Shown here: positions 3,446 through 25,245 of the stretch, one piece after another
Layout of the letters: the number at the start of each line of letters is the position of its first letter
Numbering within the stretch: position 1 is the first letter of the stretch
Assembly: GCA_963745835.1 (NCBI GenBank)
Contig: CAVUZH010000018.1
Span: 1-64,000, forward strand
Origin: an uncultured delta proteobacterium
GTDB lineage: Bacteria > Desulfobacterota > Binatia > UBA9968
DNA: 64,000 nucleotides
Direction of reading: 5' to 3'
Notes under the pieces: model-generated
Database searches by the model: none
What the model was told of the DNA's origin: nothing
The model's input: the letters and a program-made list of their open reading frames with translations, nothing else
Translations under genes and position numbers: made by a program

Positions 3446-3691
3446 CTAGCCTGCTGCGAACGAAGAATTAAGATCAAGCCGCTTATCGACCCAGGTCTTT
3501 CCAACTTCAATCGCGCACAGTTCCGCCTCCTCCTTACTGTCAAATTGCCGAAACCAATTCTTGATCGGACGCAACTTCTGGCGATCATCCTCAAACCACG
3601 AGACGACGACCGACCAAGTCCACCGGTGTGTGAATTTATGAGGAACTGTAGAAATGACAATACGGTGATTCTTATACAGCAGACTGGCCAT
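3446..3691 (-). CDS. Small hypothetical protein, paralog 2 of 3
   Basis: MASLLYKNHRIVI...W...VSW...FDSKEEAE...KTWVD. Confidence 0.65.
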   Translation of the reverse strand: MASLLYKNHRIVISTVPHKFTHRWTWSVVVSWFEDDRQKLRPIKNWFRQFDSKEEAELCAIEVGKTWVDKRLDLNSSFAAG

Positions 3692-4063
3692 CGAGGACTC
3701 CTAATTCAAGCTACCGGTCCTGGCTGGCCGTTTAAGCGAGAAAAAAGACTTTGTGCGAGATCATCCTACGTCTGTTATGAAGTTTTGTCGAGAGTAGAAA
3801 TTAAAGTGTCCGCAAGACTGATCCGAATAGCACAGACACACTGTCAGAGAGCAGTACCGAAGATTAAAAAGCGGCTCACTTTACCTCCAAAGCGCATAGG
3901 TGCTTTGAATCCCTAGATGCGAGACAGAACGAAGCGGTTAGAAAGTGTCTAATCTTAGACAGCAATCAATCATTGACTCGGCGAGGGTAGCTGTGGAGGG
4001 AACAAAGCCTATGGAACATTATTCTAAACGGCCAGCCAGAGCCTCAACATAGGAGTTCCGCGC

Positions 4064-13228: not shown

Positions 13229-13565
13229 TCCGATGACCTCATTTTTGTGTCGAAACTTTGACGAGCCATGTTAGCACAATCATTTTTTGGAAGTATCTTT
13301 TTTACTAAAATAAAGTCAGGTGCGACTCCCGCAATTTCTTTAAAGTCCGATACTACACTCAAATGCGGCGTCAATATCCGTCGGTTTGAGACGCCATCCT
13401 CTTGTGAAACCATAGTACCCCACCGGCCAATGCAGCCTGAGCCAAATGGAATAACAACATCAAAAACAAATAAGTAAGTTTTTATGGTAATCTGCATGAG
13501 CATTCGCGGTTGTGCGCATCGGCGGACAACAGCACAAGTTTTGTACAAACTTTATCCTGCTAAAA

Positions 13566-14564
13566 ATGCTTTTAATGGCAGATAATTCCAGTTGTCACGA
13601 GAAGTCTCTGATTTTGATACCAGTTTATGAAGATTGGAAGGCGCTTCACCGTCTCTTGCCACTCTTAGATCAGGAGCTGAGTACCAACAGACTCCGAGCA
13701 GATATTTTGGTAGTTGACGACGGCTCATCAGAAGTAAGCTTTCTGCCTGAAAAGGCAAAATGTTTTCGTTCTATCGAAGCAATCGATATTCTTTCGTTGC
13801 GACGCAACGTCGGTCATCAGAGGGCCATTGCAGTTGGTTTGTCATACCTGGAGGCGAACCAAGCCTGTTATCGGGTGGTAGTCATGGATTGCGACGGCGA
13901 GGATAATCCAGGCGACGTACCCCGTCTCATCAGAGAATGTAGTGCTCATCAAGATCAAAAGATAATCTTCGCGGCACGAACACGTCGTTCGGAAAGTTTA
14001 TCTTTCAAAGCCTTCTATCACATCTATCGTTTGATTCATTTTCTATTGACTGGCGTTCGTGTCCAGGTTGGAAACTTCAGTGTAATACCCGCGGTCGTCC
14101 TCAGACGAGTAGTGGTTGTTTCCGAGTTGTGGAACCACTACGCCGCAGCGGTCTATAAGGCGAAGCTACCGATAGCTCTGATTCCGGTCCAACGTAATTG
14201 CCGGCTCGAGGGTTCGTCGCGCATGAACTTAGTTGCGCTCGTGGTCCACGGATTGAGCGCAATGGCAGTTTTTGGCGACCGCATTGGAGTAAGGCTCTTG
14301 ATGCTTGTATCTTTGGGAATGAGCTTAGTCGGCCTAGCATTAGTCGGCGTTATCGGCATCCGGTTTTTAACGCCACTCGCCATACCCGGGTGGGCCACCT
14401 ACGTCACTGGAATCTTGCTGGTGATCCTGATTCAGATGCTCATAATTGTGCTTGTCTTTGCGTTTGTCATTCTCGCAGGGCGTGACACCGTTAGCTTCAT
14501 ACCCAGTCGCGATTATATTCATATGGCGGACGGAGTACGGCGGGTATATGGTTCCGGCCAGTAA
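13566..14564 (+). CDS. GT2 polyprenyl-phosphate glycosyltransferase (GtrB/DPM-like)
   Basis: LIPVYED, VVDDGS, RNVGHQRAI, VMDCDGED; two C-terminal TM helices. Confidence 0.88.
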   Translation: MLLMADNSSCHEKSLILIPVYEDWKALHRLLPLLDQELSTNRLRADILVVDDGSSEVSFLPEKAKCFRSIEAIDILSLRRNVGHQRAIAVGLSYLEANQACYRVVVMDCDGEDNPGDVPRLIRECSAHQDQKIIFAARTRRSESLSFKAFYHIYRLIHFLLTGVRVQVGNFSVIPAVVLRRVVVVSELWNHYAAAVYKAKLPIALIPVQRNCRLEGSSRMNLVALVVHGLSAMAVFGDRIGVRLLMLVSLGMSLVGLALVGVIGIRFLTPLAIPGWATYVTGILLVILIQMLIIVLVFAFVILAGRDTVSFIPSRDYIHMADGVRRVYGSGQ

Positions 14565-15273
14565 AAGCGCTTACATCGGCGGCGAGCTCGATCTTTTTTC
14601 TCTGGCCACAAACTGGAAACGCTATGTAAACGCTGCGATCAGAAAGTACTTAATCGGAGACGTACTTGAGGTCGGCGCGGGGATCGGCAGCACTACGGCG
14701 GCTATGCACGACAGCACCGCACATCGGTGGATTTGCCTTGAACCGGACTTATGCAATGCTAAACGGCTTAAAAAAAACACCATTGAACAATTGGGATTCA
14801 AAAAGACTCATGTTATCGCGGGGTCATTGGATGCGCTTGCTAAGCGTCCAATTTTTGACTGCATCTTGTATATGGATGTCCTGGAACACATTCATCACGA
14901 TCGTGATCAGATCCTCGCCGCCGCGCAACTCGTTCGGCGGGGTGGCCACATTGTAGTTCTTTCTCCCGCTCATCAGTGGCTGTTCAGCGAGTTTGACAAG
15001 AGCATTGGGCATTTGCGCCGTTATAACAAAAAACTTCTCCGCTCGCTCATGCCTTCAGGATGGATACAGGTCAAAATGGCATATTTTGATTCTGTTGGAG
15101 CTCTACTCTCGTTGGGAAACGCGGTAGGGCTTCAGCAAGCCATGCCGTCGCCTTGGCAGATTGCGATCTGGGATCGCTTCTGCATACCGATATCCCGAAT
15201 CATGGATTCCGTCTTGAGAGAGAAATGCGGCAGATCCGTACTGGCGGTATGGCGTAAACCGGATACTGTATAA
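14548..15273 (+). CDS. Class I SAM-dependent methyltransferase
   Basis: LEVGAGIG, DVLEHI, GHLRRY motifs; overlaps GT2 stop. Confidence 0.85.
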   Translation: MVPASKSAYIGGELDLFSLATNWKRYVNAAIRKYLIGDVLEVGAGIGSTTAAMHDSTAHRWICLEPDLCNAKRLKKNTIEQLGFKKTHVIAGSLDALAKRPIFDCILYMDVLEHIHHDRDQILAAAQLVRRGGHIVVLSPAHQWLFSEFDKSIGHLRRYNKKLLRSLMPSGWIQVKMAYFDSVGALLSLGNAVGLQQAMPSPWQIAIWDRFCIPISRIMDSVLREKCGRSVLAVWRKPDTV

Positions 15274-15339: not shown

Positions 15340-16935
15340 GTGCGCTGGATAATTCCCACCGGTCTTTTTCTGGGGGTTGTGCTTTTAACTGGCGCAACCC
15401 TAAGGGATTACGGAATAGCTTGGGACGAACCGCCCTATTTTCATGCCGCCGATCTACACATCGCGTGGATTCTTGGTTGGCGAACGAACATCGAACAACG
15501 GAATTTTAATCAAAGCCTCAGCGATGAAAACATCAAAGCTGCTTGGCGCTGGAATCCATACCATGTGCCCCACCCGCCCTTTTCACGCATAGTTTCCGGT
15601 TTCACAAAATACGTATCTTCCGGATGGCTTGATAAACTTTCGGGTTACCGTATCGCTCCGGCGCTATTCTTCGGGGCTTTGGTTACCGTGATGTTTCTGT
15701 GGATGAGAGCAGTGTTTGCCGTTGCAACAGGTCTATTTTCTGCATTTGCCTTAGTCTTGATACCCAATATCTTCGGTTTTGCACACATTGCCGTTACCGA
15801 CTTGCCACTCGCATCCATGTGGTTTTTAACTGCGTTCTGTTTTTGGAAAGGGCTTCAAGATTGGAAGTGGAGCGTGGCTTGCGGCCTGGCATGGGGCCTG
15901 TCGCTTGCGACGAAATTTCCGGCCGTGCTAATTCCTATACCTTTATTTTTGTGGGCTCATGTGTTTCACAGGAATAAGTACGCCAATAATGTTCTTGCAA
16001 TGCTCTTTCTCGGACCGATGATTATGGTAGCTACTCAACCATATTTATGGCATCAAACCGGTCTTCGGGTATTGGAGTTTCTGTACGAAGGATTGAGCCG
16101 CGGGTATCGAGCCGATGCAAACTTCCCGGTCTACTTCTTTGATCAATTGTACTTCACGCATCAACTTCCGTGGTACTATCCTTTTTTTTTGGTAGGCATA
16201 ACGACACCGGAACCTCTTGTGTTTCTAGCCGCACTCAGTCTCGTTTCGATGATCTGGATTCGAAAAGGGACGTCAACCGTGGCGCTCTTTGCCTTGAATG
16301 CGTTCTTTATTCTAACGCTCGGTCTCTTACCGGGCGCGGTACTTCACGATGGCGTACGCCAAATGCTTCCGGCTCTCCCGTTCCTGGCCGCAACTGCTGG
16401 AGCCGGATTTTATATCCTTGGAGAATGGCTATTCTCGCTGGCGCATAGATCGACCCAACTGCAAGCTGTTGCACATCTGCGTGGGAAGCTTGTCGGAGTT
16501 CTCGGCTTTCTCATCCTGTTCTCACCCGTGCTCGACCTTTACCTATGTCATCCTTTCCAATTAAGCTTCTACAATCGTTTTGTCGGCGGCATCCGCGGTG
16601 CCTATCAACGCGGTTTGGAGCTCACATATTCCATGGAAGCGTTTACTCCGAAATTTGTTGACGCGATCAATACTAAGCTGCCTCACAATTCTGTCATTAA
16701 CGCTTCCTTTGCCAACTTCATGTTCAAGTATTATCAGAAGGAAGGACGCCTGCGCGCGGATATCACGATTTCTGATGCTGAAGCATCCGATTATTATATT
16801 ATTCTCAATAGGCGGAGCGCTCTGGGGTCCCGTGAGCGTCTGCTAATGAACGGCAGCACACCTAGTTATTTGGCTGAACAGCTTGCCGGTGTTCCGTTGG
16901 TGGCAGTATTCGAGCTTAACACGCCGCGGCAGTAA
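15340..16935 (+). CDS. GT-C fold glycosyltransferase (ArnT/PMT_2-like)
   Basis: YGIAWDEP, PHPPFSR, ATKF, P-W-Y-Y motifs; many TM helices. Confidence 0.8.
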   Translation: MRWIIPTGLFLGVVLLTGATLRDYGIAWDEPPYFHAADLHIAWILGWRTNIEQRNFNQSLSDENIKAAWRWNPYHVPHPPFSRIVSGFTKYVSSGWLDKLSGYRIAPALFFGALVTVMFLWMRAVFAVATGLFSAFALVLIPNIFGFAHIAVTDLPLASMWFLTAFCFWKGLQDWKWSVACGLAWGLSLATKFPAVLIPIPLFLWAHVFHRNKYANNVLAMLFLGPMIMVATQPYLWHQTGLRVLEFLYEGLSRGYRADANFPVYFFDQLYFTHQLPWYYPFFLVGITTPEPLVFLAALSLVSMIWIRKGTSTVALFALNAFFILTLGLLPGAVLHDGVRQMLPALPFLAATAGAGFYILGEWLFSLAHRSTQLQAVAHLRGKLVGVLGFLILFSPVLDLYLCHPFQLSFYNRFVGGIRGAYQRGLELTYSMEAFTPKFVDAINTKLPHNSVINASFANFMFKYYQKEGRLRADITISDAEASDYYIILNRRSALGSRERLLMNGSTPSYLAEQLAGVPLVAVFELNTPRQ

Positions 16936-19300
16936 GGTTTTGCCGGTGCTTTCGCAAATAAAGAAGGATAGAAATTGCGACAATAAACAAAAGCGTAATG
17001 ATGGAGACGGCACGACCTATCGCGAACGAACGAGGCTCATAACGGAATTGTACGGTGTGCGTGCCGGCGGTCAGTTGCACTCCGCGGAAGAAAAGATTTG
17101 CCCGATAAATCTTTTGCTCGGGCCCATTCACATAAGCATTCCACCCCGGATAATACGAGTCAGCGAGGACCAAGATCCCCGAATCATTCAGAGACACCTG
17201 AACGGTTACCGCTTGGTTCTCATAACGATCGATCCTTGCTGTAGCCAGGAGAGGATGCCCAGGTCTGTTTGCCAAGTCCTTGTCGAGGATCACCTCCTGA
17301 TTCGGATCGAACTCCAGAGACGCAAGGCGCCGCAAAATCTGCGTTGAATTGGTTTCGACTACGCTTTTGTTGACAACATAGACACGCGGAACAGTTCTGT
17401 CAATTTCGTAAAGCCAAGAAGGATATTCAGGGAAGTACCGAACCAAGGTGATGCCATCCTTCCGTAGCTCTCGGAAACTGACGAGGTATTTGATATTCAA
17501 AGCTCCGAGGAGGCGAAATCTTTGCTCTGAGTCGAGCCGGTCTGCAAAGCTGAGGAATGAGAGATAAGGTCGCCTAGAAAATGCATCGATTTCCTGAAAA
17601 TATTCGACCCCCTGAAATACTCCGGTGTTTGGCAAAAGATTACCGAACACCAAGGAAATCGCTTCTCCGAAGGAGGGCCGTGCCAGCACCGAGTATTGAG
17701 CAGGATGTAAAGTTTTCCCTGCCGGATAATAGAAAACTCGGCCAATCTCAGGCTTTAGCTCGGAAATAATTTTTGGACGATCATAAACAAAGCTTGGATC
17801 CAGAAGAAACTGGTAGTCGCGGTGAGCTCTCTCAAGATCAATGAAAGCCACGGTAACGAGAAGCACTTGAGACAATGAGATCCGCACAAGTCCTTTCTTC
17901 GCAGCAAAAAACAAGGTGAGAAGCCCGAAGCTCAAAAAAAGCTGTCTTTCTATAGATACGAGCACGGCAGCAGCTACTTTGACTGTGGGCGAAGACAGGA
18001 TCTGTGAATTGGTTCTGAAGGCTACGAATTGCGACACGAATTCCGTATTGAACCTTAGAAAAAAATTAAAGACCAGCAGAGTAAAGAGGATTGAGAACAA
18101 GACCGCGAAAACACTTTTTCGCCGAGAAACTTCGGTTTGAAAGAAGACAAAGAAGCCTCTCAAGGTAACGAACCAAAGAAAGCCATAAGTCAGAAAGAAA
18201 AATTTCTCGGGAAATCGGATGAGACCGAGAACCGGAAAGGAGTGAAGGAGGAACGGATAGACAGGGGTGTACCCGCCAAAGGCAAAGACAAGGGTCAATG
18301 CGATCAGCACTAATGTGACGGCTCTCTCCCTAGTGGAGCTGTAGACCAGCCAGAACCACCCGCCAAATAGCGTAACTGCTCCCAAGTAATGGCTCACAAA
18401 CAATGAAGCGCGGCTCAAGAAGAAAAGGCGCATCCCGGGAAGGATGGTGGTGTCAACTTCCTTATCCAAAAAGAAGAGGTTGAAAAGATCGTAGGGATTC
18501 AGCGACCAATCGATGGCCTCGGAGAATGGGATGGGTTGCGATCTTCTGGAGTGTAAAAACAATTCGATTGTTGGCGCGAGCTGAATCATCGCTATAGCGA
18601 AAACCAATGCGTTCCCCCCAAGTATTACCAGCGCTATTCTTCTGTATGGCCTGCTTTCGGGGCTGGTCGCTTTTAGCCTCATAAGCGCTAAAATCACAAA
18701 GATCATGTTCATGGCGTAAAACTCAGGAGAGCCAGCGAGAAACAGCAGTAGCGACACCGCAACGAAACCAAGGAAATTCCGCCAAGAGCATGAGCGAAAG
18801 CACCTTTCCGCCAGGAGCACTACCGATGGAAGCCAAACCGCCGCTTGAAAATGATTCAGGAGATTCGTAAGAGAAACTATCACGCCGCCGAACGTAAAAA
18901 GAATTGCCCCAAGCATGGAGAGATAAGTCGGGTAGTCCCAATGCCGACACAGAAGGTAACTTCCGGTTGCCGCTACAAGATAATGGAACAGAAAGATGCT
19001 CGAAACGGCGGAAAAAAAGGGGACGACGAGAAAGGCGAGATGTGGTGGATAGAATGCACCCGACTGAAAATCGGCCAGGAGCGGGAAGCCGGCCGCCACT
19101 CGGCGATCCCACAAAGGCAGGTCTCCGACTCTAAGACTTTCCGATAAAGAGAACCGCATTGGATAAAAGTAAGGACCAAGATCACGGAAGAAAGGAACTT
19201 TGCCGTCCCATATCATCTCGCCGCCAAACCACACCACCAAACCCATCAAAACAAGCAAGGGCAACAGTTCACGGATCGAACTATATCTGTTTGGGAGCAT
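16916..19300 (-). CDS. YfhO-family membrane protein (GT-C)
   Basis: LPLWD...GFPLLAD...FYP N-terminus; LVLADSYYPGWNAYV...ANLFFRGV...FRYEP C-terminus; ATG 19300 preferred because the listed start overlaps the pilA terminator. Confidence 0.82.
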   Translation of the reverse strand: MLPNRYSSIRELLPLLVLMGLVVWFGGEMIWDGKVPFFRDLGPYFYPMRFSLSESLRVGDLPLWDRRVAAGFPLLADFQSGAFYPPHLAFLVVPFFSAVSSIFLFHYLVAATGSYLLCRHWDYPTYLSMLGAILFTFGGVIVSLTNLLNHFQAAVWLPSVVLLAERCFRSCSWRNFLGFVAVSLLLFLAGSPEFYAMNMIFVILALMRLKATSPESRPYRRIALVILGGNALVFAIAMIQLAPTIELFLHSRRSQPIPFSEAIDWSLNPYDLFNLFFLDKEVDTTILPGMRLFFLSRASLFVSHYLGAVTLFGGWFWLVYSSTRERAVTLVLIALTLVFAFGGYTPVYPFLLHSFPVLGLIRFPEKFFFLTYGFLWFVTLRGFFVFFQTEVSRRKSVFAVLFSILFTLLVFNFFLRFNTEFVSQFVAFRTNSQILSSPTVKVAAAVLVSIERQLFLSFGLLTLFFAAKKGLVRISLSQVLLVTVAFIDLERAHRDYQFLLDPSFVYDRPKIISELKPEIGRVFYYPAGKTLHPAQYSVLARPSFGEAISLVFGNLLPNTGVFQGVEYFQEIDAFSRRPYLSFLSFADRLDSEQRFRLLGALNIKYLVSFRELRKDGITLVRYFPEYPSWLYEIDRTVPRVYVVNKSVVETNSTQILRRLASLEFDPNQEVILDKDLANRPGHPLLATARIDRYENQAVTVQVSLNDSGILVLADSYYPGWNAYVNGPEQKIYRANLFFRGVQLTAGTHTVQFRYEPRSFAIGRAVSIITLLFIVAISILLYLRKHRQNLTAAAC

Positions 19301-19329
19301 TTTTGAGCGGTTAAGTGCTAGTAGCACGA

Positions 19330-19367
19330 ATAAAAAAGGGGAAGGGCTCGTAGCTCCCCTCCCCCTC
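19330..19367 (-). terminator. Intrinsic terminator of pilA
   Basis: Minus strand gggggagggg-agctacgag-cccttcccc followed by TTTTTT. Confidence 0.7.
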
Positions 19368-19397
19368 AAATCTGTGACCCAAGGTGAGAATTAGATA

Positions 19398-19792
19398 CTA
19401 ATCACAGCCACCGGCCGTCTGGGTGATTTGTCCGTCCGTGCTGGTAAAAGTCCACGTATCATCGTTTCCGCATCCGGATACATGTGTACCTGTTATATAG
19501 AACGTGTTGGTACCTACGAGTGCACCCAATGCGGTATCATTGCTCTTATTAAAGCCTGTCAGCGTGCCGCTAACGAGAGCACCGCCCTTATAGGTGAACG
19601 CTGTCGTGAAATAAGCCTCTTGGCCGTCGCTGCATTTCTTAGGTCGGCTTTCACTGCCGCTTCATATCCTCTTTTTCGATAAGCCGAAAACTGTGGAATC
19701 GCTATGGCCGCCAATATACCGATGATCGCTACCACGACTAAAAGCTCGATCAGTGTAAAACCAGATTCATTTTGCAAGCGTAACTGCTTCAT
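19398..19792 (-). CDS. pilA: Type IVa major pilin, 131 aa after correcting a -1 frameshift at 19622-19623
   Basis: G|[22 protein letters not shown]; adding one C gives ...[16 protein letters not shown]...[11 protein letters not shown]...AGGCD* with a C-terminal Cys pair. Confidence 0.88.
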
Positions 19793-19930: not shown

Positions 19931-19946
19931 AGCAAAAGCAGAGCCA
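19931..19946 (-). promoter_or_regulatory. Sigma54 (-24/-12) promoter of pilA
   Basis: Minus strand TGGCTCTGCTTTTGCT: GG-N10-GC spacing, between the sigma54 activator gene and pilA. Confidence 0.75.
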
Positions 19947-20116
19947 TCTAGGCCTGGCCGGACTGCATCAGAGACCTAGGCAAGGCCTACCACGGAAGTG
20001 CACAGATTTCCGGATAATCATCCAAAACGGAATCAAGGGTTGAGCGAGCAGGCAATTAGGAGCAGGCGGATTTCGGGATTATGTAAGTTTGCCGGGCGCC
20101 AGAGTGACAAAAATTG

Positions 20117-22165
20117 TTACTGCTGTTCCGTAAACTCGACCGGTAGCGAATCTCCTTTGCTGCCTGACATACCGTACTTCTCGAGTCTGTGACGGAGTGA
20201 CCGGTAGTTGATGCCCAGAATTTCAGCCGCTCGCTTCTGAACGCCATTGGCTCTTTTAAGCGCACCAAGGAGAATGGACCTCTCATGAGTTTCCAATTCG
20301 GCGTCTAACGACAAGCCCTTCTCGAAAAACACCTTGGCTTCGTCAGATACATTTGTTTCGATGACGGGGCGCTCTTCTGCAAGAGAATTCGCATTAATGT
20401 ACGCCGGTAAATCATCATCCGTCAGAATATTTTTATTGGTCACAGTTACGGCATGTTCGATAATATTCTCCAGCTCTCTAACGTTTCCGGGATAATGATG
20501 AGTCAATAGGTGCATCAGGGCGGTACTGGAAATTTCTTCAATCTTCTTGGCATGCAGGCACGCAAACTTGCGCATGAAATGATGGGCGAGCAAAGCAATA
20601 TCTTCTCTTCGGTCGCGCAGGGCGGGTATAGCCAGTTGCACAACATTCAGGCGATAATAAAGGTCTTCACGAAAACGCCCTTCTTCCATTTCCCGCCTCA
20701 AATTGCGATTCGTCGCGGCAATGAAACGCACATCGACTTTAATCGGTTTGTTGCCGCCAACAGGCGTAAAGATCGTCTCCTGCAATACCCTTAGCAGTTT
20801 GACTTGCAAGTGAACCGGCAACTCGGCTACCTCATCAAGAAAAATGGTCCCTTGATCTGCCTGTTTGAAAAGCCCCGGATGGTCGGCAATTGCCCCTGTA
20901 AACGCACCTCGGACGTGCCCGAAGAGTTCGCTTTCGATAAGACCTTCGGGTATCGCACCGCAGTTCACTGCGATAAACGGTTTTGCTTTTCTGGGTCCAT
21001 TAACGTGAATCGCGCGCGCTACTAATTCTTTGCCGGTTCCGCTTTCGCCGGTAATCAATACATTAGTTCGCGTAAGAGCTACTTTCCTGATCAGCTGGTG
21101 AATAGTTTCAATTCCTACGCCTTTACCGATGACACCATCGAACTGAAACTCCTCTTGCGAGCTCCCTAGCGGCAGTTGCTGCAAATTGAACTCACGCGCT
21201 CGCCGTAGTTCCTCTTCAACCCTGACCTTCTCTTCGAATTGTTTTTGTCTCGTGATGTCTTCGAATATGGAAACGTATCCCATACACTCTTCGTTAGAGT
21301 TGATTAGCGAGGCTAAACTGAGGCGGATATTTTTCTGGCCTTCTTCAGGAGTAGCAAAAACTATTTCTTCTAAAACAATATGCGGGCTCGGTTGTGGTTT
21401 GTCGAAGTTCCACCGGAGGCTTGGAAAAACTTCGTCGAGTCGCTTGCCGATCACCGCCGGTTCACTCAAGGAGGTAAGATTCTGCGCCTGGAGATTGAAG
21501 TAGTTGATTCTTCCTTTACCGTCGGTGATTGCCACGCCACTAGCCATCCCTTGCATCAACGCTTCCTTCAGCGCATCTAGTTCCTGGTAATCATTTTTTT
21601 TCTCTTCCAGTAATTTTTCCGTCTCACCAAGCTTATTCGCTAAAAAACCGCTCAAGGCAGCAATGACAAAGAAACTGCCGATATTCAGAATCACAGGTAT
21701 TAACGAAGCCGATGACATAGGAAGTCCGCTATTCTGGCTAAAGTAACTGACCCAGATCAAAAGGGCTGCATAGCATAAACTAGAAAACCCCGCCGTGAAA
21801 AACGCGCCGCGGTAAAATAGCAATATGGCTGCATTCATCACCGCTAGGTTATAGAGGAAGGAGAACGGGCTGGCAGCATCACCGGTAATCCAGATGATGC
21901 CGGTAATCAGAATTACGTCAAATCCAATCTGAGCATGAGCAAACGATCGAAGATGACGAACTCGTGGCAGGAGCAGAAACGAGCCAATAGAGATTCCATA
22001 AGCAACTAAAAGGGGTGTAAGTATGATGAAGAAAAACCGCGGGCTGCCTTCCGCTTGAAAGAAGTTGAACAGGGCTGTCGCGGCTAAAAAGAACGTTAGG
22101 ATGGCTAGTCGAAGGATAAGCAGCCATCTTATCTTTTCAGTCAAACTTTTATTATCGCCAGTCAA
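20117..22165 (-). CDS. Membrane-anchored sigma54 activator: PilS-like TM sensor + PAS fused to PilR-like AAA+/HTH
   Basis: WLLILRL/SPFSFLY PilS-type TM region; PAS; GESGTGKE, GAFTGA, FLDEV, FREDLYYRL, PGNVREL; Fis HTH; no HisKA, HATPase or REC. Confidence 0.85.
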   Translation of the reverse strand: MTGDNKSLTEKIRWLLILRLAILTFFLAATALFNFFQAEGSPRFFFIILTPLLVAYGISIGSFLLLPRVRHLRSFAHAQIGFDVILITGIIWITGDAASPFSFLYNLAVMNAAILLFYRGAFFTAGFSSLCYAALLIWVSYFSQNSGLPMSSASLIPVILNIGSFFVIAALSGFLANKLGETEKLLEEKKNDYQELDALKEALMQGMASGVAITDGKGRINYFNLQAQNLTSLSEPAVIGKRLDEVFPSLRWNFDKPQPSPHIVLEEIVFATPEEGQKNIRLSLASLINSNEECMGYVSIFEDITRQKQFEEKVRVEEELRRAREFNLQQLPLGSSQEEFQFDGVIGKGVGIETIHQLIRKVALTRTNVLITGESGTGKELVARAIHVNGPRKAKPFIAVNCGAIPEGLIESELFGHVRGAFTGAIADHPGLFKQADQGTIFLDEVAELPVHLQVKLLRVLQETIFTPVGGNKPIKVDVRFIAATNRNLRREMEEGRFREDLYYRLNVVQLAIPALRDRREDIALLAHHFMRKFACLHAKKIEEISSTALMHLLTHHYPGNVRELENIIEHAVTVTNKNILTDDDLPAYINANSLAEERPVIETNVSDEAKVFFEKGLSLDAELETHERSILLGALKRANGVQKRAAEILGINYRSLRHRLEKYGMSGSKGDSLPVEFTEQQ

Positions 22166-22225: not shown

Positions 22226-23443
22226 CTAAACCAAGGATCCCATCTGGAAGATAGGTAGATACATGGAAATGACCAATGCGCCGAGAATCACGCCCAGTAC
22301 AACCATGATCAATGGCTCCATGAGCGCGGTCAAATTAGCGACGGCGTCATCAACTTCTTCCTCATACAGTTCGCCGACCTTTTTCAGCATGCCGTCAAGG
22401 CCACCGGTGCTCTCGCCTACAGCCACCATCTGACAAACCATTGGGGGGAAAATTTTGCTATCTCGCAACGGTTCCGCGACAGTTTTACCCTGACTGATAC
22501 TTAGACGGCTATCCATAATCGCCTTCTCAACCACTTTGTTGCCGGCTGTTCTAGCTGTAATCGCTAAGCCATCGAGAATGGGCACGCCGGAACTTAGGAG
22601 AATAGACATATTTTGCGAGAATCGCGCCACGGCAACTTTCCGCAAGAGATCGCCGAAAATCGGCATTCGGAGCAGTATTCCGTCAATGTGCATTCTGCCG
22701 TGCGGTGTCTGATAATAGAATCGCAGGCTGCCGACGACGGCCGCCGTTCCGAAAATCATGTAGAGCCAGTACGCAATGAACCAATTACTGAGATTGATGG
22801 CGATTTGTGTCGGGACCGGCAGCGCCTTTCCCATACTGGTGAACAGTTCAGCAAAAACCGGGATCACGAAAATCAATAATACCGCCACTACGATGATCGC
22901 CACCGCCAGAATTGAACATGGATAGATCATCGCGCCTTTAACTTTCTTCTTCAGCTTGGTGGCTTTTTCGATGAACAGAGCGATTCGGTTCAGGATGGTG
23001 TTTAGAACACCGCCGGCTTCGCCAGCTTCCACCATATTGACATAAAGGTCGTCAAAAACTTTGGGATACTTCTTAAGAGAAGCTGCCAAAGTCAAACCTC
23101 CCTCAACATCCTGCCTAATTCCGCGAATGGTATTGCGGAGCAATTTACTAGCTGATTGCTCGCTAAGGATGTCCAAGCACTGCACAATCGGCAAACCCGC
23201 ATCGATCATCGTGGCAAATTGACGGGTGAATAAAGACACGTCCTTAGGTTTTACTTTCTCACCAAAGCCGGGGATGCTAATTTCTTTGTCGAGACCCTGC
23301 CCCTTTTGCCGTATTCGGTTCGGAATCGGCCGGATCCGCCGTTCCCGTAAAGCCGAAAGTACGGCCTCGAGGTTGGGAGCTTCGAGATCCCCCTTCATGA
23401 GCCTTCCTTGAGCGGTTTTTCCTTCCCACAGAAATGTCGGCAT
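22226..23443 (-). CDS. pilC: Type IV pilus platform protein PilC
   Basis: FTRQFATMIDAGLP, GEAGG, KVKGAMIYP, LMEP..., MYLPIF. Confidence 0.95.
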   Translation of the reverse strand: MPTFLWEGKTAQGRLMKGDLEAPNLEAVLSALRERRIRPIPNRIRQKGQGLDKEISIPGFGEKVKPKDVSLFTRQFATMIDAGLPIVQCLDILSEQSASKLLRNTIRGIRQDVEGGLTLAASLKKYPKVFDDLYVNMVEAGEAGGVLNTILNRIALFIEKATKLKKKVKGAMIYPCSILAVAIIVVAVLLIFVIPVFAELFTSMGKALPVPTQIAINLSNWFIAYWLYMIFGTAAVVGSLRFYYQTPHGRMHIDGILLRMPIFGDLLRKVAVARFSQNMSILLSSGVPILDGLAITARTAGNKVVEKAIMDSRLSISQGKTVAEPLRDSKIFPPMVCQMVAVGESTGGLDGMLKKVGELYEEEVDDAVANLTALMEPLIMVVLGVILGALVISMYLPIFQMGSLV

Positions 23444-23517: not shown

Positions 23518-25245
23518 TTAGAATCCCAATGAAAAAACTGACCCGAAGCCCTTGTCTGTGTCGGTAACCCGGATAGTCTCCTCTATTGTTGTGTAACCGT
23601 CCCGAACCTTCTGCAGGGCGCTCATACGAAGCGTACTCATACCTACCTTAACGGCCTCTCTCTTTAGATCCGCAGCCGAAGCAGATTTCAGAATCAATTC
23701 TTTGAGACCTTCATGCATGACGAGGATTTCGTAAATTGCGAGTCGGCCTCTATACCCGGTCTCGTTGCAGTTATTACAGCCTCGCCCGCGAAAAGTTGGA
23801 AACCCTCCAGCAGCCTCGGACGCATCTACACCTAAATTAATCAAAGCCTCAGGCGCGACCTCGATCGGTTCTTTGCACTTATCGCAGATACGCCGCACCA
23901 AGCGCTGCGCTGCAATTAAGTTGATTGATGAAGTCAGTAGAAACGGCTCCACGCCCATATTGATAAGACGATCAATTGTCGATGGAGCATCGTTAGTATG
24001 CAAGGTGCTCAGGACAAGATGACCTGTCAGAGCCGCTTTAACCGCAATCTGCGCAGTCTCAAGATCACGAATCTCACCGACCATGATAATATCCGGGTCC
24101 TGCCGTAGAAAAGAGCGAAGACATGAAGCGAAGTTCAGTCCTATCTGTTCTCTCACCTGAACTTGGTTGATACCTACAAGGTTATATTCAACCGGATCCT
24201 CAGCAGTTGAAATATTCACATCGGCTTTGTTCAATTCGGAAAGTGCCGAATAGAGAGTAGTCGACTTACCGCTGCCTGTCGGGCCCGTTATAAGGATCAT
24301 CCCGAATGGTTTGTGGATGGCTTCCTGAAAATCTTTCAGTGTCTGAGGATCGAAGCCAAGCTTCGCCATATCGAGCTGGAGATTGGATTTGTCAAGCAAC
24401 CGCATCACGACTTTTTCGCCGAAGAGAGTTGGCAAAACCGACACACGGATGTCTAGCTCGCCGCCAATACCCATTTTTAGCTTGATACGGCCGTCCTGCG
24501 TAAGTCGCCGTTCGGCGATGTCGAGCCCGGCCATCACCTTCAGGCGAGAAACTAGAGGATTTTTGAGCCGGAGCGGCGGACTCATTATCTCTTGCAGCAC
24601 ACCATCGATACGGAATCTCACACGGAAAAGTTTTTCGTAGGGCTCAATGTGAATGTCACTCGCTCTGCGTTTTGCCGCGTCTGCTAAGATGGCGTTGACC
24701 AGAGTAACTACTGGTGCTTCCATCGTAGCCTGTTGAAGCTCTTGAAGGTTGACATCATCCTGCTCGAGGATGAGCTCCATGTCACTATCGCCGAATTTTT
24801 TTAGAACGTCGTCGTAACTGATTCCGCCAAATCGGTGGTCTAAAGTTTTCTTGATGGCGGACGGCGATGCTAGTACGACTCTCACCCCGTAGCCGGTGAT
24901 GAATTTGATCTCATTGATCGCTATCAAATCCGTTGGGTCTGCCATAGCAACGGTGAGAATTGAGCCGGTGAGCTTGGTTGGAACTAGCTGGTGTTTCTGA
25001 GTAAGCTGCGGCGGTACCAAACTAAAAACCGACTCCTCAATCTCCTCCGGAGTCAGCTCGATCTTTTCGATGCCAAACTGTTTGGCGAGGAATTCGGTAA
25101 GTGTCTGTTCTGTCGTAAATCCGAGTTGAATAAGCTCTTTCATGACGGACGAACCGCTGTCACGTCCTTTTTGCTGGGCCTTGTTCAGTTGGTCGCGTGA
25201 AACAACCCCCCCTCTAACCAACAATTCTGCTACCCTCGGTTCCAT
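23518..25245 (-). CDS. pilB: Type IV pilus assembly ATPase PilB
   Basis: ASDIHIEP, GPTGSGKSTT, LRQDPD, STLHTND, Cys zinc motifs. Confidence 0.95.
   Translation of the reverse strand: MEPRVAELLVRGGVVSRDQLNKAQQKGRDSGSSVMKELIQLGFTTEQTLTEFLAKQFGIEKIELTPEEIEESVFSLVPPQLTQKHQLVPTKLTGSILTVAMADPTDLIAINEIKFITGYGVRVVLASPSAIKKTLDHRFGGISYDDVLKKFGDSDMELILEQDDVNLQELQQATMEAPVVTLVNAILADAAKRRASDIHIEPYEKLFRVRFRIDGVLQEIMSPPLRLKNPLVSRLKVMAGLDIAERRLTQDGRIKLKMGIGGELDIRVSVLPTLFGEKVVMRLLDKSNLQLDMAKLGFDPQTLKDFQEAIHKPFGMILITGPTGSGKSTTLYSALSELNKADVNISTAEDPVEYNLVGINQVQVREQIGLNFASCLRSFLRQDPDIIMVGEIRDLETAQIAVKAALTGHLVLSTLHTNDAPSTIDRLINMGVEPFLLTSSINLIAAQRLVRRICDKCKEPIEVAPEALINLGVDASEAAGGFPTFRGRGCNNCNETGYRGRLAIYEILVMHEGLKELILKSASAADLKREAVKVGMSTLRMSALQKVRDGYTTIEETIRVTDTDKGFGSVFSLGF

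Follow-up and report, generated by a model that had tools for sequence, protein, structure and literature searches.

Can the two-component system made up of PilS and PilR lose its phosphotransfer steps and still serve as a regulator of the pilin gene? This question is raised by a stretch of 64,000 nucleotides from an uncultured soil bacterium (GTDB lineage Desulfobacterota; Binatia; UBA9968), comprising positions 1 to 64,000 of contig CAVUZH010000018.1 in the NCBI assembly GCA_963745835.1, which we refer to as the window. At the position of pilS and pilR, between pilC and the major pilin gene pilA, it holds one uninterrupted open reading frame (ORF) of 682 residues, which an earlier note had described as a PilS sensor joined to a PilR output in a single protein. 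Our analysis bears this out: the ORF and its Pfam domains agree on a transmembrane (TM) N-terminus, a PAS domain, an AAA+ ATPase with a GAFTGA motif and a Fis-type helix-turn-helix (HTH), and neither a kinase nor a receiver domain; the N-terminal half aligns to PilS, and the C-terminal half groups with PilR. By its sequence, the protein is a genuine one-polypeptide PilS-PilR from which the kinase core and the receiver have been removed. Since both the histidine-kinase core and the receiver are gone, no phosphotransfer is possible.

The PilS-type membrane domain (6TM_PilS, PF25323) is recognised at the N-terminus with 70 bits against a cut-off of 27, and the ATPase part is matched by Sigma54_activat (PF00158, residues 347-511, E 1.9e-70) and AAA_lid_14 (PF25601, residues 517-597), while no Pfam match to HisKA, HATPase_c or Response_reg was found in the protein at E <= 0.01. 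The hydropathy profile has six hydrophobic segments; lysines and arginines occupy the N-terminus and the loops that follow TM2, TM4 and TM6 but are absent from the remaining three, and the PAS, AAA+ and HTH parts are therefore predicted to be cytoplasmic. The multi-TM N-terminus and the domain order are those given in the earlier note. The Walker A motif GESGTGKE, the GAFTGA motif (nucleotides 20891-20908), the Walker B residues DE and several arginines do not vary across an alignment of 45 homologues, and residues R19 and D83 of the membrane domain are invariant in 45 homologues of the fused family. Compared with a PilS kinase, the protein has the six-helix domain and the PAS domain that follows TM6, and lacks the H-box of DHp, with its phospho-accepting His, and HATPase_c; compared with PilR, it has the AAA+ domain with GAFTGA, the Fis HTH and PilR orthology, and lacks the receiver with its phosphorylatable Asp. 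With Walker A, Walker B, GAFTGA and a DNA-binding domain, in a genome that contains one copy of rpoN (G000 C19:355366-355842), it belongs to the sigma-54 enhancer-binding proteins (EBPs). A one-component system combines a sensor and an output in one protein without phosphotransfer, and the fusion protein, which has input and DNA-binding output in one polypeptide and neither histidine kinase nor receiver, falls under this definition. The best NCBIfam match is PrdR (residues 183-665, 378 bits against a cut-off of 795), and all NCBIfam matches are sub-threshold matches to sigma-54 activators. According to a search of the genome, the fusion is its only 6TM_PilS protein.

The origin of the two halves can be traced with some precision. 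All 13 canonical PilS kinases compared, which come from other families of the phylum and to which the N-terminal module is only ~30% identical, align with residues ~5-325. The alignment always stops at residue 320-325 of the fusion (~325-355 of PilS), where the PAS domain and the initial turns of DHp have just been passed and the H-box is still to come; in five canonical PilS proteins the end of the alignment precedes the ..AHE[IM]RNP motif. From residue 340 onward, the fusion aligns with PilR starting at PilR residue ~138-145, which corresponds to the linker between receiver and AAA+ domain. This C-terminal half scores 299-336 bits against nine PilS-adjacent PilR proteins of other families and at most 271 bits against ~25 EBPs of its own genome. 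A tree of 47 output modules places the fused forms and the 9 PilS-adjacent PilR proteins in one clade (Shimodaira-Hasegawa-like approximate likelihood ratio test, SH-aLRT, 97) that excludes the 15 EBPs from the same genome that were long enough to be used, ten further matches having been left out because their aligned region was too short. When the C-terminal half is compared with proteins of up to 601 residues, the top matches are truncated members of the fused family, and behind them come receiver-containing proteins of 462 residues named "PilR" by JGI, with 52-56% identity. Alignments and tree thus agree that the output module is orthologous to PilR rather than to other EBPs, and the simplest history would be a deletion across adjacent pilS and pilR genes, extending from the start of the DHp helix to the inter-domain linker of PilR.

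A fusion of this kind could also have arisen by misassembly, or it could be the dead remnant of a pilS-pilR deletion. The earlier note had named region 21150-21260 as the place to check for a misassembled junction. Dozens of genomes share the junction, and contigs from other samples cross it, namely a DNA contig of run X3 (21081-21296, 1 mismatch) and an RNA-library contig, X15 (21140-21316, 2 mismatches). The fusion is not an assembly artefact. A search with the N-terminal 345 residues retrieved 633 proteins at E <= 0.001, and among the matches listed 120 of 120, with 60-97% identity, carry both PF25323 and PF00158. The public names of these homologues, "response regulator PilR" (JGI) and "sigma 54-interacting transcriptional regulator" (NCBI), hide the loss of the receiver. 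We further examined 40 relatives, scoring the fusion as present when a full-length match to the N-terminal module (E < 1e-90) lay in an open frame of ~680-750 residues. It is present in 22 of 24 genomes of the same family (21 of 22 when the unpublished genomes G012, with a match, and G018, with no full match, are set aside), in 3 of 5 genomes of a second family, the split copy of G029 being counted among the three, and in 0 of 11 of a third; the close relatives carry the same fusion, and not separate pilS and pilR genes. No match to 6TM_PilS was found in four complete or nearly complete genomes of the order that have no fusion (G025, G026, G027, G037). In the nearly complete genome G029 of the second family, the membrane part is split by a stop or frameshift (L034, C6:957263-958288), with the AAA+-HTH part open in an ORF of 527 residues. 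Genome G031 has, besides the fusion, a second 6TM_PilS protein in a frame of 565 residues, the size of a canonical kinase (L036, C324:4281-4865).

The surroundings of the fused gene are conserved as well. The order ppdK-pilB-pilC-fusion-pilin-YfhO-like is kept in the loci of 20 relatives, and a pilin signature follows the fusion in 19 of these 20; locus L018 ends at a contig end, and at L026 the pilin-like sequence is seen only in the alignment. A scan of species-representative genomes gave 59 loci, of which 53 belong to the fused family, all from metagenome-assembled genomes, mostly labelled Candidatus Binatia or Deltaproteobacteria, with a few other labels. These comprise 44 complete fused ORFs, 7 cut by contig ends and 2 broken or unresolved; a pilin signature lies within 1 kb downstream of 40 of the complete ORFs, and 41 have a GG-N10-GC element, so that the architecture is found beside a pilin gene in related genomes. 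It should be noted that the 53 loci overlap with the 40 relatives and the 20 loci and are not independent of them, and that the query, an alignment of 6 closer sequences, reaches the closer fused lineages, distant ones of the L053 and L054 type lying beyond it. The identity of the intact ORF falls from 97% to ~47% for the N-terminal module within the order, and to ~38% over the full length in other clusters. Such conservation, together with the invariant catalytic motifs, the contigs crossing the junction and the intact pilA genes of the relatives, makes an artefact or a decaying relic highly improbable, even though pilA is frameshifted in this assembly and the regulator copy of G029 is disrupted.

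The conserved position beside pilA is accompanied by conserved promoter features (Table 1). The GG-N10-GC element that the earlier note had placed upstream of pilA is aligned in 21 of 21 loci, in 17 of them with the strict pattern TGGY-N7-T[TG]GC; across the loci, it lies 160-200 nucleotides past the stop codon of the regulator and ~150-225 nucleotides before the pilin signature. A conserved palindrome, T[GA]ACAA..TTTGTCAC, is located directly at the regulator stop codon. Of 42 distinct upstream regions, 36 contain TGACAA, where shuffles that ignore the relatedness of the loci predict 3.9, and 29 contain TGACAAA, where they predict 0.9; counted from the -24 element, the occurrences concentrate between -200 and -160 and between -140 and -120. 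The form TGACA-N5-7-TGTCA also occurs upstream of the sigma-54 pilin promoters at the canonical loci L045 and L056 and at the fused locus L054, with only a half-site at L048 (TGTCA) and L053. In the host's own genome, 1 of the 517 sites with the sigma-54 pattern has the palindrome 40-260 nucleotides upstream, and this site is that of pilA. The genome contains a second major-pilin-like gene (G000 C22:294551, minus strand), which has no sigma-54 element and no palindrome in the ~490 nucleotides upstream of it. Because the pairing of palindrome and sigma-54 element occurs only at pilA, and neither is found at the second pilin gene, the regulator looks dedicated to pilA.

Table 1. Positions in the window of the fused gene, its predicted domains, the promoter features and the adjacent pilus genes.
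Feature	Position	Strand	Remarks
Fused pilS-pilR gene	20117..22165	-	682 aa, TTG start, no internal stop; 6TM_PilS - PAS - sigma54 AAA+ - HTH_8
PilS-type six-helix membrane domain, residues 4-185	21611..22156	-	Pfam PF25323 6TM_PilS, E 2.9e-19
PAS domain, residues 200-310	21236..21568	-	Pfam PAS/PAS_9
Junction, residues 305-349	21119..21253	-	Predicted DHp stub helix and linker into the start of AAA+
Sigma-54 AAA+ ATPase core and lid, residues 347-597	20375..21127	-	Pfam PF00158, PF25601
Fis-type HTH (HTH_8), residues 624-664	20174..20296	-	Pfam PF02954
Candidate enhancer (upstream activating sequence), imperfect palindrome GTAACAATTTTTGTCAC	20104..20120	-	TAA stop of the regulator in the left arm; ~175 nt upstream of the -24 element
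Sigma-54 -24/-12 element TGGCTCTGCTTTTGCT (GG-N10-GC)	19931..19946	-	The ATG of pilA follows after ~140 nt
pilA (type IVa major pilin), frameshifted in the assembly	19398..19792	-	N_methyl prepilin N-terminus
pilC (T2SSF platform protein)	22226..23443	-	Upstream of the fusion
pilB (T2SSE assembly ATPase, MshEN domain)	23518..25245	-	Upstream of pilC

How might a sensor control the ATPase when kinase and receiver are missing? An AlphaFold2 model of the fusion, built with 45 homologues (mean predicted local distance difference test score, pLDDT, 78; predicted template modelling score 0.44), has membrane helices up to ~residue 177, of which the last (152-206) extends toward the PAS domain, a PAS part with a mixed helix-strand fold at ~210-303, a helix at 305-329 and the AAA+ core from ~350; the pLDDT drops below 50 at residues 327-341. 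Judged by the alignment with PilS, helix 305-329 is a stub of the DHp helix, cut before the H-box, from which a low-confidence linker leads to the ..F.F.GVIG start of the AAA+ domain. The length of the junction varies among the fused clusters from ~14 residues (P0138) to ~40 residues (Binatia type), some junctions being of low complexity, and in L054 the linker helix of PilR has been retained; the sequences on either side of the linker, ..RRARE and F.FEGVIG, are conserved. A linker that is flexible and variable argues against rigid helical coupling, and fits control by distance or by dimer state. In a comparison with solved structures, no match was found to residues below 300 of the fusion, and the output half has its nearest relatives of known structure in FleQ, NifA, NtrC4, NtrC1 and ZraR. 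A complex prediction for the six-helix domain (residues 1-200) with the N-terminal 55 residues of mature pilin, run without controls, reached 0.00 against a mark of 0.32, which speaks neither for nor against binding.

In P. aeruginosa, the six membrane segments of PilS contact PilA directly and deletion of pilA renders PilR hyperactive, according to an excerpt of one paper (PMC6058289), and PilS phosphorylates PilR at low levels of PilA and dephosphorylates it at high levels, according to an excerpt of another (PMC5979040). The observed architecture, PilS and PilR ancestry, conservation and position of the fusion, together with the conserved promoter and palindrome, form the basis on which we consider it probable that the protein is a one-polypeptide regulator, composed of a PilS sensor (residues 1 to ~325), a linker of ~20 residues and a PilR output, which activates pilA from the membrane by a conformational response to pilin. 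By analogy with P. aeruginosa PilS, the membrane domain would read the inner-membrane pool of pilin. While this pool is full, the sensor dimer and the coiled-coil DHp stub would hold the ATPase domains apart; once the pool is drained, the AAA+ domains would be free to oligomerise, conformation taking the place of the balance between kinase and phosphatase. The HTH would bind the TAACA-N5-TGTCA palindrome that overlaps the stop codon of the gene itself, and the AAA+ module would form a ring that opens the sigma-54 promoter of pilA ~175 bp downstream, so that the activator would work while anchored in the membrane, beside its own gene.

Several points weigh against this proposal. Pilin sensing, DNA binding, control of the ATPase and activity at the membrane are functional claims that we infer. 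The junction is predicted to be flexible, and it varies in length and composition, which does not suit signalling through one rigid, continuous helix and would permit release by proteolysis. No precedent for six membrane-anchored protomers in one ring on DNA was found in the literature searched, and, in an excerpt of PMC10084136, the bacterial EBP RedR2 is described as being held inactive by membrane sequestration. The shuffle statistics for the palindrome do not take the kinship of the loci into account; pilA, which is the presumed target as well as the presumed signal, is frameshifted in this assembly; and contig X15 gives a weak hint that the fusion is transcribed, RNA-library contigs being no proof of transcription.

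The six-helix and PAS domains might instead respond to a PAS ligand, to the redox or energy state, to the state of the membrane or to another component of the pilus, in which case the protein would be a one-component activator of pilA without pilin autoregulation. This view may be supported by the PAS domain, which is kept and conserved in all fused lineages, by the low identity of the N-terminal module to canonical PilS of other families, and by the consulted excerpts of PMC5979040 and PMC6058289, where pilin sensing is shown for P. aeruginosa PilS only. However, the 6TM_PilS domain, which an excerpt of the latter paper reports as the part contacting pilin in P. aeruginosa, is present here at full length; R19 and D83 do not vary in the 45 homologues of the fused family, the first ~30 residues of the mature pilin hardly differ among 11 relatives, and the fused gene always stands beside a pilin gene. 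Taken together, we regard a signal other than pilin as rather unlikely. Receiver-less EBPs of the NtrC1/DctD type are constitutively active, and this counts in favour of another possibility, namely that the membrane anchor keeps the activator away from the DNA or from ring assembly until a signal-dependent cut in the junction frees a PspF-like, constitutive AAA+-HTH fragment, which then activates pilA in the cytoplasm. The modelled low-confidence linker of ~20 residues between the post-PAS helix and the AAA+ core, which is poorly conserved in length and sequence among the fused clusters, would suit such a cut, for which the sequestration of RedR2 is a loose precedent; yet the aligned junctions show no conserved motif for cleavage, and the conserved flanks are what a working hinge would be expected to have. 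Nor is a protease gene conserved in the 20 loci, where the neighbours are pilB, pilC, the pilin gene and the YfhO-like gene, and an irreversible cut would be poorly suited to controlling an inventory of pilin. For these reasons, we consider proteolytic release quite unlikely, and favour conformational control of the anchored activator by pilin.

Comparison with known systems helps to define what is particular about the fusion. It shares with the PilS-PilR systems of P. aeruginosa and of the canonical loci L041, L043, L048 and L049 the six-helix PilS domain, the PAS domain, the PilR-type AAA+ domain and the Fis HTH; the position from pilC to pilA, the sigma-54 pilin promoter and the TGACA..TGTCA palindrome, as at the canonical loci L045 and L056, are likewise common to both. 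Unlike them, it is one integral-membrane polypeptide, and since it has no DHp His, no HATPase_c and no receiver Asp, there can be no kinase/phosphatase cycle. In NifA, DmpR/XylR and the PAS-AAA+-HTH regulators such as PrdR, a sensory domain also acts directly on the AAA+ core without phosphorylation, but those proteins are soluble, whereas the sensor of the fusion is a six-helix membrane domain and its output comes from a response regulator. The receiver-containing EBPs of the NtrC1/DctD type (1ny5, 3dzd, 4l4u) are close in the sequence of AAA+ and HTH (E 1e-70 to 1e-74) and, like the fusion, have a helix preceding the AAA+ domain, which in the fused L054 is still the PilR linker helix, so that a dimer-based control of the off state common to both is plausible by analogy; in the fusion, however, the receiver is replaced by the PilS six-helix and PAS domains, and in the lineage of the window the linker consists of the putative DHp stub and a flexible stretch. 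ToxR and CadC also combine a membrane-anchored sensor and a DNA-binding output in one polypeptide and activate transcription from the membrane, but they are unrelated winged-helix proteins of the OmpR type with a single TM helix, which act at sigma-70 promoters and need no ATPase ring.

In the limited full-text literature searched, neither a fused PilS-PilR nor a sigma-54 activator that is an integral membrane protein was found described. The locus offers a natural experiment, in which a well-studied two-component system has lost phosphotransfer but kept its sensor, output, promoter and gene position. If the protein works as proposed, the membrane and PAS module of PilS can control an AAA+ activator by conformation alone, which would provide a simpler system for studying signal transduction upon pilin binding in the membrane without the kinetics of kinase and phosphatase. 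It also poses a mechanical question, as a sigma-54 activator must form an ATPase ring and loop DNA, here with each protomer anchored by six helices.

Has the fusion arisen once or several times? In an even sample of the phylum, 234 of 301 genomes have a 6TM_PilS match, and most of the 150 open frames among the matches listed are ~545-600 residues long, which is the size of a canonical kinase. Twenty of these loci were examined. The order pilC-pilS-pilR was found at four (L041, L043, L048, L049), pilR lies directly before pilS at another four (L044, L045, L046, L056), L055 has pilS before pilR without pilC, and several have pilS alone. Two loci in other families contain fusions, namely L053 (679 residues, in the order pilT-pilC-fusion-pilin) and L054 (669 residues, followed by a pilin gene). 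The pilin at L054 (G066, 3566-3802, minus strand) has 78 residues and is short, like the pilin of 77 residues at the canonical locus L048. The 150 representatives (50%-identity level) nearest to the sensor half comprise 119 with a kinase core, 10 with AAA+ (9 of them full-length fusions) and 21 fragments. In the sensor tree, a branch with SH-aLRT 99 parts 12 fused rows from 49 kinases and 4 further fused rows; in the tree of concatenated modules, 13 fused rows form a clade (SH-aLRT 100), L053, L054, P0138 and P0183 fall among 9 canonical PilS and PilR pairs, and the well-supported branches force at least 2 changes of state. However, approximately unbiased (AU) tests did not reject a single clade for all fused forms (p 0.30 for the C-terminal module, p 0.27 for the concatenated modules). 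Because a single origin is left unrejected, the trees give only a hint of more than one fusion event in the phylum. We tentatively put forward a wider scenario, whose correctness we consider doubtful: the PilS-PilR relay would have been short-circuited more than once in the phylum, each time by a deletion from the start of DHp to the PilR linker; the ring would form at the membrane, on an enhancer overlapping the stop codon of its own gene, bringing synthesis, insertion and DNA binding to one spot; and occupancy of the six-helix domain by pilin would set ring assembly directly.

A point that the earlier note had overlooked is the frameshift in pilA. The 5' part is an ORF of 77 residues (19559-19792, minus strand) whose N-terminal helix is intact. 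The remainder of the pilin is read in a different frame, down to a TAG at 19398-19400, so that the C-terminal domain, which contains ..GGCD and has two cysteines, lies outside the frame of this ORF. Relative to L058, L059 and L072, one nucleotide is missing near 19625, at GCGAC-GGCCAAGAGG. The pilA genes of the relatives are intact and encode pilins of 127-145 residues; we therefore rejected a short pilin of the Geobacter type, the 77-residue ORF being the product of the frameshift. In a comparison with Logan contigs of other runs, two X5 contigs (one at ~94% identity), from related strains, hold an extra base at 19622 or 19625 that restores the frame; run X1, which is the best match, has no contig over 19603-19703, and the X3 contig diverges before 19626. 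The frameshift may be real or may be an assembly error. The C-terminal domain and the 3' flank of pilA are closer to the pilin gene of another genus (L072) than to those of the closest relatives, as though an exchange of pilin alleles had taken place.

Immediately downstream of pilA is a gene for a YfhO-family membrane protein of 817 residues (16916-19369, minus strand), and a large membrane protein resembling YfhO follows the pilin gene in most of the relatives' loci for which downstream sequence is available. Beside it, on the plus strand, are genes for a PMT_2 (GT-C) glycosyltransferase (15340-16935), a methyltransferase (14446-15273) and a GT2 enzyme (13512-14564), which together with the YfhO-like gene may form a cluster for glycosylation of the pilin or the envelope. 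Elsewhere, the genome encodes PilM, two homologues of prepilin peptidase and PilT-like ATPases. The genome also contains two identical ORFs of 650 residues for a sigma-54 activator on separate contigs (G000 C12:2364-4316 and C19:542568-544520), which have either been duplicated or reflect redundancy in the bin, for which a contamination of 9.3% is estimated.

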